Assembly (NCBI GenBank): GCA_943354645.1
Contig: CALRCO010000003.1
Span: forward strand, 1-32,865
From: Candidatus Nomurabacteria bacterium
GTDB taxonomy: Bacteria; Patescibacteriota; Minisyncoccia; Phycocordibacterales; UBA9973
Reading direction: 5' to 3'
DNA: 32,865 nt
In this document: positions 360-29,031 of the stretch, one piece after another
How positions within the stretch are numbered: position 1 is the first letter of the stretch
Layout of the letters: each line of letters starts with the position of its first letter
Translations under genes and position numbers: made by a program
Notes under the pieces: model-generated
What the model was told of the DNA's origin: nothing
The model's input: the letters and a program-made list of their open reading frames with translations, nothing else
The model's database searches: none

Positions 360-371
360 CTTTTTGCTATC

Positions 372-722
372 TTATCTAGAATCGTCCTTATATTCTTCAA
401 TAAAAGATTCAAGGTTCATGCAAATAGTCCAGTCATATTTTTTTAAGAGAGTATGGAAGATCTCATAAATTTCTTTTGTTTTTTCGTCAAGTAGACCTCT
501 TTTTAACGACAAGGTTATTTCTCTTAGTGCACTATCTTTGTTTAAACTGAAAAGGTTGTGAAAATTTTCAATAATGATATCTTTGTCTGCGCTAAGCAAT
601 TTGTCGATATTAGCCATATCTTCCGCATCAAAATGGTGGCCAAGATTTTTTTCAATTAAAATAAAGTCTTTATTTGTTGAAAAAGCGTATTCGCGGTTTA
701 GATTGTTTTTTTCCTGTTCCAT
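372..722 (-). CDS. hypothetical protein (116 aa)
   Basis: ATG start with TATACT 7 nt upstream on minus strand; ends at the terminator. Confidence 0.7.
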   Translation of the reverse strand: MEQEKNNLNREYAFSTNKDFILIEKNLGHHFDAEDMANIDKLLSADKDIIIENFHNLFSLNKDSALREITLSLKRGLLDEKTKEIYEIFHTLLKKYDWTICMNLESFIEEYKDDSR

Positions 723-744
723 GAGATAAAGTATATCAAAATTA

Positions 745-938
745 ATGTGTGTCGGAAACGGACTTGCCCGCAGCTAAAATTTCGCCGACGCTCAATTTTG
801 CTTGGGCACCGCCTCGTGATTTTTCGAAACGAAAAATAACACTCCGGCGTTCAAGTCCGCACGCATACAATGCAGATTGCATGCTTCGACCGCGCATATG
901 AAAAATCACCACAATTGTGGTGATTTTTCATATGCGCG
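745..938. repeat. tRNA-3'-associated structured element, copy 1 (tRNA-Asp)
   Basis: 766-858 aligns ungapped (72/93) to 17483-17575; 48-bp perfect palindrome 891-938 runs into the tRNA acceptor; inverted copy of the T arm GTTCAAGTCC at 849-858. Confidence 0.85.
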
Positions 939-1009
939 AGCGATGGGACTTGAACCCACGACCTCTCCCGTGACAGGGGAGCGCTCTGAACCAGCTGAGC
1001 TACGCCCGC
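935..1009 (-). tRNA. tRNA-Asp(GTC)
   Basis: Reverse complement GCGGGCGTAGCTCAGCTGGTTCAGAGCGCTCCCCT-GTC-ACGGGAGAGGTCGTGGGTTCAAGTCCCATCGCTCGCG folds as a cloverleaf; CCA not encoded. Confidence 0.97.
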
Positions 1010-1668
1010 ATATTGGCAATATATCTATCAAACTGAACCTTTTTTCTTTTTAAACATAAGGAAACAGTACTGGTATTATACATAAAATCATAAATTTTCA
1101 AAGCATCTCCTGTACTAAATTGCAGTCTAAAGTATGACCCACTTTTTGAAGTTACGAGACATCCTGTTGTTTTCAATAGAGATGTCAGCTTATTTTTTAA
1201 TTGGTACAAAAATTCACTAGAAGCAGAAGTAAAGGCTAGTTGTAGCACAGTATGGCTGGTTCTTCTTTCCTTGTGTACTTTTCCTTGCCAAATATTACCA
1301 TCTCCATCAAAATAACCTTTTACAAAATAAGGAAACATGACTTTAGGAATCTTGATAAAAGGAAGGTGTTTTGTCTTTGTCTTCCCAAATCCAATTTTTT
1401 GAAATCCCTCCACTATCTCTTTCGATCCTATTTGCAAGCGATAAAATGATGTATTGGTTAAAGAATTTTTTCTCTTGGATATTTTATGGAGAGAACCCAT
1501 GGCGTCTTTAATATCCGAAATTATCTGTCTGTCTTTTGATTGAAATGAAATATAATAACCCCCTCGATTATTAATTGAGAGATTGCCATCTGCTGCGAAA
1601 AATCCAAGGATGTAAGTCATATCAGGACTCCATTTTTTAAAAAATAGCGCTACCTTTTCTGTTTGCAT
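1000..1668 (-). CDS. free-standing double-motif LAGLIDADG endonuclease family protein
   Basis: Two motifs YILGFFAADGN and FVKGYFDGDGN; basic protein; stop codon lies inside tRNA-Asp. Confidence 0.85.
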   Translation of the reverse strand: MQTEKVALFFKKWSPDMTYILGFFAADGNLSINNRGGYYISFQSKDRQIISDIKDAMGSLHKISKRKNSLTNTSFYRLQIGSKEIVEGFQKIGFGKTKTKHLPFIKIPKVMFPYFVKGYFDGDGNIWQGKVHKERRTSHTVLQLAFTSASSEFLYQLKNKLTSLLKTTGCLVTSKSGSYFRLQFSTGDALKIYDFMYNTSTVSLCLKRKKVQFDRYIANMRA

Positions 1669-1767
1669 ATTGTTAATAGTATACCCGATGACAGTAAATT
1701 ACCCTAACCATGTTATCAACAATTCATTACCTTTTGGAAAAGTTGGTGTGGGGGTATACTCATACAT

Positions 1768-2622
1768 ATGATGAAGCATATAGAAGGAATCGGCGTTGCA
1801 CTTTTTTTGATGGGGGCATTTTCATTTGGGGTGACACTTCTATCAAAAGAAACAACATTGTTGGCGACAACGCCGTCTGTTCCTATTGTTGCGTCTGTGA
1901 AAAATATTGTTTCAGGGCCAGTACAAATAGAGAACGACGAAGCAGTATCGCAGCAAGTTGCCTTGGTGATTACTGCTGCTACTGTTGCGCAAAAAAACAC
2001 CAGTGCGCCGTTGTTTCGCTCTAGTTGTCTAAAAGGAAGTGGTGATCCTGATGCATCTATGATGGCGATTTCTCCAACTGTCGGTATTAATGTTTCTTAT
2101 GTACCAGATGACCTTGTGTCGATACCCAAATCATATACAAAGGATAGTAGTTTTTGTTTGACCCAAGCAACTAAAGATGCAGTTGTGACACTTATTGATG
2201 CTGCTCATACCGAGGGATTTTCAATAAAAGTATCGTCTGCATTCAGAAGTTATGGTACACAATCGTATTTATATCGTATGCATTTTGATATTTTGAAACT
2301 AACAAGAAAAACAGTTGCACTTGCAGGGCATTCTGAACATCAATTAGGGACTGCGGTTGATCTTTCAGGTGCATCTATTGGATATAAAAGTGCAGCAGCA
2401 TCTTTTGGCACCACTCCTGAATATGCATGGCTGATTGCTCATGCGAGCGAGTATGGATTTGTACAAAGTTATCCAAAAGGAACAGAATCAATAACAGGAT
2501 ACGCAACAGAGCCGTGGCATTTTAGATATGTAGGCAAAGAGATTGCACAAGCTATTGCTCAAGAAGGAGTTACGCTGTATGAGTATCTGAATAAAATGAC
2601 AGGAGAAGCGGTGTCAATATAA
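1768..2622 (+). CDS. M15B / VanY-family D-Ala-D-Ala carboxypeptidase, N-terminally anchored
   Basis: SAFRSY..Q, GHSEHQLGTAVD (SxHxxGxAxD) and EPWHFRYVG motifs; hydrophobic N-terminus. Confidence 0.9.
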   Translation: MMKHIEGIGVALFLMGAFSFGVTLLSKETTLLATTPSVPIVASVKNIVSGPVQIENDEAVSQQVALVITAATVAQKNTSAPLFRSSCLKGSGDPDASMMAISPTVGINVSYVPDDLVSIPKSYTKDSSFCLTQATKDAVVTLIDAAHTEGFSIKVSSAFRSYGTQSYLYRMHFDILKLTRKTVALAGHSEHQLGTAVDLSGASIGYKSAAASFGTTPEYAWLIAHASEYGFVQSYPKGTESITGYATEPWHFRYVGKEIAQAIAQEGVTLYEYLNKMTGEAVSI

Positions 2623-2624
2623 AA

Positions 2625-2671
2625 CAAAATTAAAAGCAGTGCCAGCGAAGCTGGCACTGCTTTTAATTTTG
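2625..2671. terminator. bidirectional intrinsic terminator
   Basis: caaaattaaaagcagtgccagc-gaa-gctggcactgcttttaattttg between convergent genes. Confidence 0.85.
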
Positions 2672-2684
2672 TCCGGTCGTCTCT

Positions 2685-4394
2685 CTATTGAATTACTATT
2701 TTCGTCACACTATACGGACGCACTACCATACTTGTTGGATTTTGTATGGATTGTAATGCGGTGAGGGTAACAGGAGAGAATGTTCCAGTGAAATTCTTTT
2801 CTCCATAACTTGAAGAAAGAGCAGATCCATATATTGATTGTGACTGCACTGTTTTACCCGCTGGGACAATTGATGCATTATTTACTTTAATATCTTGTAC
2901 TGCAATTGATTGTCCTGTCCAGTTTGAAACAATGTAGGTGAGTTTATTTGTTGCTGTGTCTTTTGCACCAAGGACTTGCACATCAAGTTGGTCAATGCCT
3001 GTTGGGATTGTGAGAGTGTTCGTATCGAGTAGTTTATGGTTACCGTCAAATACTGATGCAAGTAATTCAAATACATGCATGGTGGTGCGTTTTACCATAC
3101 TGGTGCCAATTTTTTGCACGTTACCGACATCATCTGAAGATGTATCGTACTTACTGATTGCTGCACGATTGTCTCCAACACCATTTAAGTAATACATTGA
3201 TTCAACAACATTATTATGTGCTGCATTGTATTTCATCACCCCCGTGATAAAGTCTGTGGTGAATAGCGCTTGTGCTATGGTGTTGTTTACTGAGAATGCA
3301 CTAAACGTATTTGGGACGACACCATTATTGTCGGTACCCCATGAATTTACCACTATTTTATATCCGGGATACGCACTCATGCGAGCGTCTAATTTTGAAG
3401 GAATGTTACTCGTATAGTGGTGTGTTATTGTTTTGAAACAATCAAATCTTACAGCAGAATCTCCTGTGGTGCAGGTTTGGTCGACATTTTCATCGTTGTC
3501 CATAACCATATAAATACCCGCATAATCAAACCATTTATTTGCCCCCGTGTTTGAGTTTATAAGTGCTGTGTTCCATGCAGTAATAAATGGGTCCTTGGCT
3601 GCATTTAATGGATTAAGAAGTCCAACAACAACTTTTACATCTGGGTGAGCAGATTTTACGCCAAGACTCACTGCTTTTGCACGAGTGATATATGTTTGCG
3701 GATCATTATTAAGGACAGGGCGAACTTTGTTGTCAGAAATTTCAACACCGGCGAGCCATTTATCAACATTGAGTCCTTTTGCTTTTGCGTCTGCGATCAT
3801 ACCAACGTTTTCTGTAATTGCGAGTTGATTACTTGCATCATCCGTTGGGAGAAGTGCAATACTGCCACCACCAGCTTTTTGTGTGCGGATATTACCAAGT
3901 GCGTACAATTTTGCATCACTGCCGAATGCTTGCATAAATGCAGTAAATCGATCCCAATGTTTCCATGTGGTTGTTGCTGTTTTATTTGCCCAATTATTCA
4001 TGGCTGGGTCAGTGTTTCCGGCAGAAGCGAGTTCACTTGGGAGCATTCCTAAATAATTACCTTGCCAATGTGACCAGTTCATTGCTGCTAATAAATTAGG
4101 GTCATAGGAATGTACTCCAGACGCTTTCCATATATCAACGAATCCTGGTTGTTGATCAAAGACAGGAAATGCGCCAGTAAGAGTTGCTCCCATAAAGTAA
4201 TGGTTTATTTTAGGGCCGATAGTTGCTGGAGTGATTACGACTTGACCACCATTATTGTTATTGTGACGCCACGGAAAGAAAACAAGTCCTGAAAGAAATC
4301 CAGGATTACTTGCCGTGTTTGCATATAAAAATAGTCCAAAAAACAAAAAGACTCCGCAAAAAAAGACACCCTTAGTAACATTTTTCACTGACAT
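2685..4394 (-). CDS. secreted or anchored protein, glycoside-hydrolase clan-A-like (barrel plus C-terminal beta-sandwich)
   Basis: N-terminal hydrophobic segment; WLAGVE resembles W.IGNE; C-terminal VVRPYSVTKIVIQ resembles GH30/39/51-type termini. Family call is inference. Confidence 0.55.
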   Translation of the reverse strand: MSVKNVTKGVFFCGVFLFFGLFLYANTASNPGFLSGLVFFPWRHNNNNGGQVVITPATIGPKINHYFMGATLTGAFPVFDQQPGFVDIWKASGVHSYDPNLLAAMNWSHWQGNYLGMLPSELASAGNTDPAMNNWANKTATTTWKHWDRFTAFMQAFGSDAKLYALGNIRTQKAGGGSIALLPTDDASNQLAITENVGMIADAKAKGLNVDKWLAGVEISDNKVRPVLNNDPQTYITRAKAVSLGVKSAHPDVKVVVGLLNPLNAAKDPFITAWNTALINSNTGANKWFDYAGIYMVMDNDENVDQTCTTGDSAVRFDCFKTITHHYTSNIPSKLDARMSAYPGYKIVVNSWGTDNNGVVPNTFSAFSVNNTIAQALFTTDFITGVMKYNAAHNNVVESMYYLNGVGDNRAAISKYDTSSDDVGNVQKIGTSMVKRTTMHVFELLASVFDGNHKLLDTNTLTIPTGIDQLDVQVLGAKDTATNKLTYIVSNWTGQSIAVQDIKVNNASIVPAGKTVQSQSIYGSALSSSYGEKNFTGTFSPVTLTALQSIQNPTSMVVRPYSVTKIVIQ

Positions 4395-17464: not shown

Positions 17465-17641
17465 GCTGGGAGACTAGGGGTCGCCCGCGACTAAAACTTT
17501 TTCGTCAAAAAGTTTTGTCTGGGCACCGCCTCACGATTTTTCGAAGCGAAAAATAACGTTCCGGCGTTCGAATCCTAGTCGCGAGTGAAGCAGTTCACTC
17601 GCTTCCCGCAGCAAAATAAGCATCGCTTATTTTTGCTGCGG
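17465..17641. repeat. tRNA-3'-associated structured element, copy 2 (tRNA-Gln)
   Basis: Core 17483-17575 homologous to 766-858; inverted tRNA copy GTTCGAATCCTAGTC (17566-17580) and CCCGCAGC (17605-17612); degenerate direct copy 17465-17478. Confidence 0.88.
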
Positions 17642-17706
17642 GACTAGGATTCGAACCTAGATGACACGATTCAGAGTCGCGTATCCTACCATTAGATGAT
17701 CCCGCA
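17636..17706 (-). tRNA. tRNA-Gln(CTG)
   Basis: Reverse complement TGCGGGATCATCTAATGGTAGGATACGCGACT-CTG-AATCGTGTCATCTAGGTTCGAATCCTAGTCCCGCAG. Confidence 0.96.
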
Positions 17707-28417: not shown

Positions 28418-28804
28418 ATGGAAGAAACAAAAACAATCCCAGCAAAATTCAAGGACATCATTTCAACTGTTGAAACTATGTCAGTCGCTGATCTTCACGA
28501 ACTCGTGCAGACACTTGAAGCACACTTTGGTGTGTCAGCAAATGCAGTTGCCGCAGCTCCAGCAGGAGCAGCAGCGGGTGCAGCAGAAGAAAAAGATGCA
28601 TTTACTGTTGTCTTGGCCTCTGCAGGTGAACAAAAAATCGCCGTTATGAAAGTTATCAAGGAAGCTCTCGGTTTGGGTCTTAAAGAAGCAAAAGACCTCG
28701 TTGATGGCGCACCTATGACTATCAAAGATAATGTGAAGAAGGCAGAAGCAGAAGACATGAAGAAGAAGATTGAAGAAGCGGGAGGAAAAGTCGAGTTAAA
28801 GTAA
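28418..28804 (+). CDS. rplL: 50S ribosomal protein L7/L12
   Basis: FGVSA, Ala hinge, [30 protein letters not shown]. Confidence 0.98.
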
Positions 28805-28840
28805 AACAAAAAATCCCACTTCGGTGGGATTTTTTGTTTT
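28803..28840 (+). terminator. rplL terminator with UUCG loop
   Basis: aaaacaaaaaatcccac-ttcg-gtgggattttttgtttt. Confidence 0.85.
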
Positions 28841-28843
28841 CTG

Positions 28844-28987
28844 TCGACTTTTCCTCCGGCTTGGGAGGTGGTCGAGGAACGGTAGTTCCTCGTGTAGGAG
28901 AGCAGCGAGTCCTCGAGCGTTGAGAACTGTGGGTTCTCAAGGAGGAGCATAGCGACGACGGTTGGTGGGAAAGTGGAATTAAAGTAA
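28844..28987. repeat. rplL-3'-associated structured element (antisense copy, hairpins, synonymous direct copy)
   Basis: 28844-28862 is 18/19 complementary to 28776-28794; 28964-28987 re-encodes GGKVELK*. Confidence 0.85.
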
Positions 28988-29000
28988 TCAATCTGCTAAT

Positions 29001-29031
29001 ACAAAAAACTTCCATATTGGGAGTTTTTTGT
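29001..29031 (+). terminator. second terminator after the duplicated rplL end
   Basis: acaaaaaacttcca-tat-tgggagttttttgt. Confidence 0.75.

Follow-up and report, generated by a model that had tools for sequence, protein, structure and literature searches.

Small structured DNA elements behind the tRNA genes of a Candidatus Nomurabacteria genome and its relatives look like a new kind of site-specific mobile DNA

The window analysed here, a stretch of 32,865 nucleotides of Candidatus Nomurabacteria bacterium (assembly GCA_943354645.1, contig CALRCO010000003.1, positions 1-32,865 of the forward strand; the GTDB lineage ends in Phycocordibacterales; UBA9973), carries two copies of a short folded element, one behind a tRNA-Asp gene (site A) and one behind a tRNA-Gln gene (site B). 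These copies probably belong to a family of small, gene-less and non-autonomous mobile DNA elements that are site-specific for the 3' ends of tRNA and tmRNA genes, occasionally of protein genes, and whose core is folded when it is recognised by an enzyme acting in trans; the probability of this reading is put at roughly 0.72. The case for mobility draws on three things that were observed, namely the placement of the copies, the repeats derived from their targets, and their turnover between genomes. The genome that holds the window (G000) has 572,655 bases and is 88% complete. All genomes referred to below are metagenome bins, with tRNA genes as called by ARAGORN.

The element in the window and its family

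A gapless alignment of positions 766-858 with 17483-17575 has 72 identities in 93 positions, as the initial annotation had claimed, and the 21 differences fall where it had placed them. They include five compensatory pairs (in site A numbering 772/773 with 801/802, 780 with 795, and 816/817 with 841/842), eight differences at 783-793, where the first hairpin has its tip, one in the loop of the second hairpin (829), and two (853 and 855) that follow the T loop of the neighbouring tRNA, TTCAAGT for tRNA-Asp and TTCGAAT for tRNA-Gln. In genome-wide nhmmer searches the two sites retrieve each other at E ~1e-29, which excludes a chance match, and both lie just downstream of the tRNA gene on the opposite strand according to ARAGORN and Rfam tRNA calls. 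A perfect 48-nt palindrome, also predicted beforehand, is present at 891-938 and reaches no further, as 890-939 is not palindromic. The degenerate direct copy of the tRNA 3' end that had been described next to the core is clear at the Gln site (12/14 positions) and weak at the Asp site, where it amounts to seven contiguous nucleotides and scattered matches. These seven, CAAGTCC, are common to tRNA-Asp positions 56-62, while the decayed remainder has CAAGTCCG..CGAC in common with the inverted arm. In many copies of the larger sample described below, this direct repeat is perfect. The parts of both sites are as follows.

Site A
747-765, unstranded: degenerate direct repeat of the tRNA-Asp 3' segment, antisense on the plus strand, ending at the T-loop junction directly after ...GGACTTG
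766-807, plus strand: core hairpin P1, with a GCCC/GGGC base, AGC/GCT, an A/T-rich stem and CGAC in the tip
810-849, plus strand: core helix P3 (810-813 with 846-849) around hairpin P2 (816-842, AA bulge at 838-839)
850-861, plus strand: inverted arm, part 1, a sense copy of the tRNA-Asp T loop (TTCAAGT) and an imperfect copy of the T-stem 3' strand
862-885, plus strand: hairpin H (GCAG loop), which separates the T-stem copy from the acceptor copy
886-895, plus strand: inverted arm, part 2, an imperfect sense copy of the tRNA-Asp acceptor 3' strand (CGACCGCG vs CGCTCGCG), overlapping the palindrome
891-938, unstranded: perfect 48-nt palindrome, a terminator hairpin of A-tract, GC-stem and T-tract that reaches into the last bases of the tRNA
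934-1009, minus strand: tRNA-Asp(GTC), the site A neighbour (ARAGORN, Rfam)

Site B
17465-17483, unstranded: decayed direct repeat of the tRNA-Gln 3' segment, in common with the congener G001
17483-17524, plus strand: core hairpin P1
17527-17566, plus strand: core helix P3 (17527-17530 with 17563-17566) around P2 (17533-17559)
17567-17580, plus strand: inverted arm, part 1, an exact copy of the tRNA-Gln T loop and T-stem 3' strand
17581-17602, plus strand: hairpin H (GCGAGTGAA GCAG TTCACTCGC)
17603-17612, plus strand: inverted arm, part 2, an exact copy of the tRNA-Gln acceptor 3' strand
17613-17634, unstranded: terminator hairpin between arm and tRNA
17635-17706, minus strand: tRNA-Gln(CTG), the site B neighbour (ARAGORN, Rfam)

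Read along the element strand, the order of parts is a copy of the tRNA 3' segment in tRNA orientation, whose end lies in the T loop and which may be anything from perfect to decayed beyond recognition, then P1 (a long hairpin with interruptions and CG(T/A)C conserved in its tip), P3 (3-4 bp) around P2 (a hairpin with a two-base bulge), the arm, a terminator-like hairpin of A-tract, GC-stem and T-tract, and the tRNA. Arm, terminator and gene end together form one long hairpin or palindrome.

When the 572,655 bases of the genome were searched iteratively with nhmmer, 12 copies came out at E < 1e-8, and a covariance model built from 14 copies of this genome gave about 15 matches in its 573 kb. 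A copy stands behind 9 of the 28 ARAGORN tRNA genes, the copy at a tenth tRNA (Arg-TCT) is shortened, a further copy follows the tmRNA gene, and another two stand away from any tRNA. The core-free tRNAs of this genome have no long reversed arms, with the exception of tRNA-Ala, where a 10-nt arm and a remnant of the inner hairpin look like the traces of a decayed copy. Among 41 genomes sampled from the same order, the model matched 212 times in 28 genomes (0-18 matches per genome) and left 13 genomes element-free; in an even sample across the phylum, only 3 of 150 other genomes had a match.

I examined 126 of the 212 matches, comprising the best locus per genome, all listed hits of G001, G024, G029, G027, G016, G022, G033, G017 and G018, and 3 further G005 hits; the remainder is made up of the listed hits of G006, G010, G014, G020 and G039 and 62 further matches. 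A convergent tRNA or tmRNA gene, i.e. one lying downstream on the opposite strand, was found within 400 nt of 105 of the 126 copies and within 120 nt of 81, against 6, 13 and 4 copies for the three other arrangements relative to a tRNA. Core-to-tRNA distances cluster near 45 nt and at 59-92 nt, and Rfam confirms the tmRNA neighbours. This one family has more than 20 different tRNAs as targets. Linkage to tRNA 3' ends, as foreseen from the two window sites, therefore holds for these 105 copies and fails for the 16 (about 13%) without a tRNA or tmRNA neighbour, while 5 copies are cut by a contig end. Some of the 16 unlinked copies sit behind protein genes or unidentified sequence, and there the arm copies local sequence (e.g. 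L041).

Two side observations concern these neighbourhoods. A GC-rich repeat of ~33 nt (GTCACCCCGGCGGAGGCCGGGGCCCAGGCTAAT) has 11 copies in this genome (L011 and L012 on G000:C21 and L054:701 among them), and two of its copies directly adjoin element copies without a tRNA neighbour. In at least three genomes of the family (L007 at G000:C9:948-1021, L063 in G001 and L042 in G013) there is a tRNA whose anticodon, TTA, would read UAA and which ARAGORN names 'tRNA-Stop'; the G013 copy scores 73.5 bits in Rfam, and the element is found behind this tRNA too. Judged by its anticodon, it could be a suppressor or the mark of an unusual code.

The initial annotation had not recognised the element as a named family, and database searches agree. 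Rfam (release 15) has no family for the sites, either at the gathering threshold or by E-value in a permissive scan, in which only the tRNAs score; matches over the palindrome are to microRNA-type hairpins and lie far below the gathering scores of those families. No element match was obtained by blastn against phage and plasmid collections. In viral contigs, two 14-mers of the core each had at least 120 exact matches, which are due to chance: nhmmer found the element in none of the 240 listed loci, a result that does not by itself establish absence from phages. A literature search at the level of titles and abstract openings found no tRNA-linked repeats in these bacteria, and a description in print elsewhere is possible. 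The element spans ~110-190 nt and contains no meaningful open reading frame (ORF). It is thus short, multi-copy and non-coding like a miniature inverted-repeat transposable element, but it has neither terminal inverted repeats of its own nor a target duplication of fixed length; its flanks are copies of the local target that differ at every site, and the direct repeat varies from about 7 to 61 nt.

Folding, arm matching and turnover

The core is a constant structured scaffold, as had been proposed, and its helices covary strongly. Across the 126 copies, the 14 modelled pairs of P2 and P3 are standard pairs in 95.7% of 1576 cells, compared with 67% for shuffled partners (0 of 500 shuffles reached the observed value) and 41-56% for slid partners. 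Both sides of a pair have changed in 452 cells, covering 13 of the 14 pairs, in an alignment (A3) that was fitted to the covariance model and hence favours structure; an independent MAFFT alignment of the 14 copies of this genome gave such changes in 12 of 14 pairs. A P1 hairpin forms in 124 copies and has 14.8 bp on average (9.2 bp in shuffled sequences), and its tip reads CG(T/A)C(G/A) in 88 of 126. Wobble pairs are scarce: there are 34 GT/TG against 20 AC/CA combinations, 20 of the former at a single pair, and away from that pair the counts are 13 and 16 with no strand bias. A transcribed RNA would normally be biased in this respect, and pairing that is almost purely Watson-Crick and without strand bias is to be expected of a structure that is read on DNA or on both strands; it points to folded DNA rather than RNA.

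The arm takes one of two forms according to its distance from the gene. In the T-loop register (59-92 nt) it copies the T loop and the T-stem 3' strand first and the acceptor 3' strand last; between them, at the same place in these copies, lies hairpin H, which has a GCAG-type loop and a covarying stem. In the terminal register (about 45 nt) the arm is limited to the final 5-8 tRNA bases, and H with its A/T-tract flanks acts as the terminator. Several copies, with L004 (G000:C15, tRNA-Ser GCT), L006 (G000:C13, tRNA-Val) and L064 (G001:C22) among them, have a 34-nt insert (AAGCAGTCGATGCCTCATCGCACCGTCGGGGGTA) in the loop of H, which looks like an even smaller nested insertion aimed at the GCAG loop.

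That the arms follow the local tRNA was borne out in the larger sample: at least 13 of 15 tRNA-specific positions agree in 21 of 57 copies with their own neighbour, and in only 32 of 3108 non-cognate pairings. The tRNA stems offer 15 informative positions without Watson-Crick pairing: in 11 of them the arm reads as the 3' strand, in 2 as the complement of the 5' strand, and in the other 2 as neither. The arm is therefore a reversed copy of the 3' strand with no second tRNA 5' half, and a pseudo-tRNA, i.e. a tandem tRNA copy with the core in its T loop, was rejected on the same counts. The arm was likewise rejected as a copy of the old direct repeat, because, of 76 positions (27 copies) where the repeat has drifted, 69 have the tRNA base in the arm, 4 have that of the repeat and 3 have neither.

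On the left flank, the direct repeat is perfect in 14 of 57 copies (15/15 scored positions). Strong direct repeats start at T55^C56 in 10 of 16 cases and one base later in 2, while those of the terminal register are short, with 7 of 23 at or above 6 nt, and begin at the final 2-3 tRNA bases. The repeat decays with age. Only 3 of 11 copies with a still near-perfect repeat have a near-perfect arm, and arm and repeat scores are weakly anticorrelated (rho -0.31, p 0.08, n 34). As young-looking insertions are often imperfectly armed and old-looking ones matched, this weak trend suggests that arms come to match by correction towards the tRNA, or by selection, rather than through a guide requirement at the time of arrival.

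Several arrangements speak of repeated insertion. Behind tRNA-Leu there are two tandem copies with a perfect copy of the tRNA 3' end between them, and tRNA-Val and tRNA-His are followed by remnants of earlier copies that each start at a T-loop half. Genome G017 has five copies with cores 93-99% identical behind five different tRNAs, flanked by exact direct repeats of 15-61 nt; in front of two of these copies stands the tail end (7-20 nt) of another core. For 41 of 105 cores the nearest relative lies in the same genome (chance 7%), and for only 5 of 105 behind the same tRNA type (chance 2.5%); this kinship of the cores suggests that they move among tRNAs.

The congener G001, which belongs to the same genus, allows a direct comparison. 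Relative to the window genome, it has one additional copy within the T loop of tRNA-Val and another within that of tRNA-Glu, each followed by the intact old 3' end and an older element, and in tRNA-Val the T loop of the working tRNA now reads CAAGT like the arm whereas the displaced copy still reads CGAAT. At tRNA-Gln, the two genomes have the decayed repeat in common, but their cores are unrelated and each arm fits the different acceptor stem of its own genome. At tRNA-Asp, G001 and one independent lake-metagenome contig lack window positions 369-895 (527 bp) and have TAAGTG instead. The search for empty sites in relatives, called for from the outset, was hence answered in part: an element-free form exists, yet it retains the terminator palindrome at 896-938 and lacks an orphan ORF as well as the element, so that it may represent a deletion and no virgin site. 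The earlier suggestion of a non-autonomous element fits the direct repeats, the tandem arrays, the gains and losses between congeners, and the patchy distribution.

The orphan ORF (372-722, minus strand, 116 aa) lies within the 527-bp variable segment, and was rejected as cargo, having no Pfam family and, with this query, no match in 40 relatives. On the other side of the palindrome, identity to G001 rises from 85-91% in neighbouring DNA to 99% in a block at 896-1775, which suggests that the block was recently exchanged. A LAGLIDADG homing-endonuclease-like gene (1000-1668, minus strand, 222 aa) ends inside the first bases of tRNA-Asp. It was rejected as the driver of the element, since it is the sole such gene in the genome and adjoins tRNA-Asp only.

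Mechanism and rival explanations

In the mechanism proposed here, insertion would occur in two registers, either inside the T loop, mostly at T55/C56, or at the very 3' terminus of the gene. The 3' segment of the gene would be duplicated, the proximal copy keeping the gene intact and the distal copy staying behind the element and decaying; the gene would survive because this segment is present twice. The core may act as folded single-stranded DNA that is recognised by an enzyme supplied in trans, and the single-stranded hairpin of arm, terminator and tRNA could rebuild a duplex copy of the T-loop cut site, a likeness to the folded sites of integron attC, CTX phage and HUH rolling-circle systems. 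Following insertion, the arm might be kept matched by templated correction within the palindrome, or by selection. New arms could arise in three ways: by templated correction in a long imperfect palindrome, by copying of the target at insertion, or by the survival of only those insertions that restore the gene.

A number of results weigh against mobile DNA of this kind. No transposase, integrase or reverse transcriptase tracks the element across the 41 genomes, contrary to the hope for a co-occurring recombinase or nuclease, and the enzyme that moves it was not found among the families searched. A Y1 transposase is present in 16 of 28 element-bearing genomes (and thus missing from 12) and in 4 of 13 element-free ones; the corresponding counts for reverse transcriptase are 13 of 28 and 6 of 13. 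An IS91-type Y2 transposase was found in 1 of 41 genomes, which is element-free, and in none of the contigs of the window genome, and neither an IS110 (DEDD) transposase nor TnpB was found in this 88%-complete genome. Near-identical cores carry wholly different arms on both sides of hairpin H, and no known transposition chemistry accounts for this. Strong structural conservation would also fit a functional RNA, the element-free form of tRNA-Asp may be a deletion rather than a true empty site, and no circular or excised form was seen among assembled contigs, which would not show junctions or rare excision.

Other searches for a partner were less telling. Rep_trans gave one sub-threshold match in 41 genomes, and Rep_1 gave none in 41 in a search whose control matched nowhere and which is therefore uninformative. 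Exactly one tyrosine recombinase, Xer-like, is present in 33 of 41 genomes whatever their element load, the window genome included. As nothing tracks the element, the enzyme would be a housekeeping protein, a member of an unknown family, or supplied from outside the binned genomes.

Two loci of the window genome came up in these searches. At L054:1243-1899 there is a Y1 (HUH) transposase-like gene of 218 aa with inverted copies of a palindrome at 1194-1222 and 1900-1928 (CCCAGGAGGC..GCCTCCTGGG). The layout resembles that of a RAYT gene with flanking repeats; the palindrome is unrelated to the element and is found nowhere else in the genome. A reverse transcriptase of 353 aa (L002, G000:C20, 1342-2403, minus strand) adjoins a four-helix-bundle-like, Avd-like protein (2345-2701, plus strand), and going by its layout the locus would be of the diversity-generating retroelement type.

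In one version of mobile DNA the arm is a guide that the element itself carries: it would pair with the displaced strand of the tRNA gene and direct a structure-specific nickase or recombinase, the paired stretch being the one that is duplicated. The arm indeed reaches from T54 to the 3' end, 2-3 nt more than the direct repeat, the T-loop boundary stays fixed while repeat length varies over 7-61 nt, the arm is kept as the repeat decays (69 of 76 positions), and copies at protein genes have arms that match the gene (window 28845-28858 against 28776-28789; L041). A guide needed at arrival would nevertheless be expected to match best in young copies, and this is where the idea, first raised in the initial annotation, fared badly: the proportion of 3 in 11 and the weakly negative correlation (rho -0.31, p 0.08) run the other way, no mechanism is at hand by which fresh arm sequence could be written on both flanks of the conserved hairpin H, and no guide-dependent enzyme family was found in this genome. 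I consider it rather unlikely. A related proposal, self-retargeting insertion, would have the arm pair with the 3' strand of the gene, pick and measure the site, and then be rewritten from each target, with a housekeeping or unknown small enzyme doing the work, so that one constant hairpin scaffold would be aimed at upwards of 20 tRNA and tmRNA genes and at some protein-gene ends; it too is rather unlikely.

Alternatively, the element could be a miniature integrative circle that uses the Xer recombinase of the host, like IMEX, and consists of core, arm, terminator and a tRNA 3' end, with a crossover in the T loop and a replacement 3' end. A direct repeat that runs from the T loop to the end of the gene, together with use of tmRNA, is the classic signature of tyrosine-integrase elements, and both are seen here. 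The unit-length tandem repeats in G017, the switch from CGAAT to the arm's CAAGT in the working T loop of tRNA-Val in G001, and the standing of Xer as the sole recombinase in nearly all genomes fit as well. Xer is, however, equally present in the 13 element-free genomes, and one core lineage serves many tRNAs within a genome, so that each unit would need a different ready-made 3' end. A perfect repeat combined with a foreign-looking arm, as at the tRNA-Asn of G037, fits target duplication better, and a circle of this type is quite unlikely.

A functional structured RNA would explain the very strong covariation of P2 and P3, an arm that is kept complementary to the tRNA, and the constant position beside terminators. 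It might be a small RNA resembling a tRNA 3' domain, an antisense or read-through control of pre-tRNA folding or 3' processing, or a terminator or insulator; a pre-tRNA folding switch and an antisense RNA had both been suggested earlier. One pair with 20 U-G wobbles on the plus strand also speaks for RNA, but the other pairs show scarce wobble (13 vs 16) and no strand bias. Moreover, copies cluster by genome and not by tRNA, they occur in tandem, truncated and decayed states, 13 of 41 related genomes do without them, and congeners differ in which tRNAs bear them, all of which is the behaviour of selfish DNA. A scan for promoter-like sites within and next to the two window copies, which is a weak test, found no more than chance would give, and a simple terminator scan gave chance-level counts as well, though palindromic terminators escape that scan. 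The RNA readings are not supported and are very unlikely. A retroelement, in which a read-through transcript (tRNA, terminator, antisense arm, core, old 3' end) would be reverse-transcribed from a nick in the T loop, is extremely unlikely: the part order is what target-primed copying would give, by reasoning only, and this genome has the reverse transcriptase with the Avd-like neighbour, but the enzyme is no more tied to the element than its counts of 13/28 and 6/13 allow, is missing from the element-rich G024, G029, G022 and G017, and the model predicts chimeric tRNAs after jumps between tRNAs. A T-box or other tRNA-binding leader, to which the core string GGGCACCGCC had given some thought, was rejected for want of a downstream gene on the strand and of an Rfam match, and a remnant of a group II (class C) intron because the element is too small and matches no Rfam intron domain.

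Related repeats, known systems and meaning

The architecture with a target-matched arm is not confined to one core. A second, unrelated core family with the same architecture ('core2') was found behind rplL in the window, and again at about four places elsewhere in this genome (contigs C19, C36 and C2 among them), at the tRNA-Gln site of G001, and in G022 and G033. At rplL the order is a new terminator, an antisense copy of the last codons, the core, a direct repeat of the gene end (TTAAAGTAA), and an older terminator.

28839-28965: core2 behind rplL, with the arm at 28845-28858, the rplL end at 28776-28803, the repeat at about 28972-28985 and the old terminator at about 28995-29030

Two further repeat families with copies in G001 were noted, one of ~135 nt (L055:16561-16727, G000:C9) with at least 7 copies there, and one of ~30 nt (window 1731-1760) with at least 10.

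Among known systems, the islands and prophages of tyrosine integrases are close in their choice of target, as they reportedly use a sublocation in the T loop of tRNA and tmRNA genes. The element shares with these islands the insertion point in the T loop, a repeat to the 3' end that leaves the gene intact (start at T55^C56 in 10/16, perfect in 14/57), the use of tmRNA, and pile-up behind a single gene. It differs in its size of 110-190 nt, in having more than 20 tRNAs as targets, an inverted target copy and a hairpin core, and in carrying no integrase, the window genome having one Xer-like gene and no dedicated one.

REP or REPIN sequences with their RAYT, and derivatives of IS200/IS605, are short, gene-less, multi-copy hairpins beside terminators with structure at the DNA level, and a Y1 gene with palindromes exists here; these palindromes are unrelated to the element, REPs are not known to target tRNA T loops or to copy their neighbours, and Y1 does not follow the element (16/28 vs 4/13). 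The attC sites of integrons and the attP hairpin of CTX phage resemble the core in their imperfect hairpins, Watson-Crick-only covariation, bulged bases and rebuilt duplex target, whereas the element has no integron integrase or phage context, is aimed at tRNA genes instead of attI or dif, and would pass through a presumed single-stranded intermediate.

IS110-family elements reportedly employ a bridge RNA, which is a structured non-coding segment of ~150-190 nt with target-matched sequence. The arms of the element are contiguous by eye (~12 + 8 nt around a hairpin), unlike the split guides in two internal loops, and lack a wobble bias of the RNA type.

A last comparison is with IS91. IS91 elements target 5'-GTTC, CTTG or CTCG, have subterminal imperfect palindromes at their ends, pass through single-stranded circular intermediates, can capture flanking DNA by reading through a terminus, and make no target duplication (PMC13181058). 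There is some likeness: G53-T54-T55-C56 is GTTC, the flank of the element by P1 ends in NT(C/T)G, and both have palindromes at their ends. The junction of the element lies at GGTT^C or GGTTC^ of the T loop, abutted by P1; this tetranucleotide is universal in T loops, and the likeness is therefore non-specific. The elements are also more than 10 times smaller than IS91 and have a target-matched arm, and the one Y2 gene in 41 genomes belongs to a genome without them.

If the element is mobile, it would be unusually small and precise, able to enter essential tRNA genes that are present once in genomes of ~0.6 Mb and to leave them intact, aimed at one phosphodiester of the T loop, and using one scaffold for many tRNAs. 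The route by which its arms come to match could reveal a new form of target recognition, by pairing or through folded DNA, or else a strong and so far unnoticed correction of palindromes beside terminators. The family marks tRNA loci as hot spots of genome change in bacteria of the candidate phyla radiation, it provides a model with which about 200 so far unannotated intergenic stretches in the order can be annotated, and it looks like a new kind of site-specific mobile DNA.

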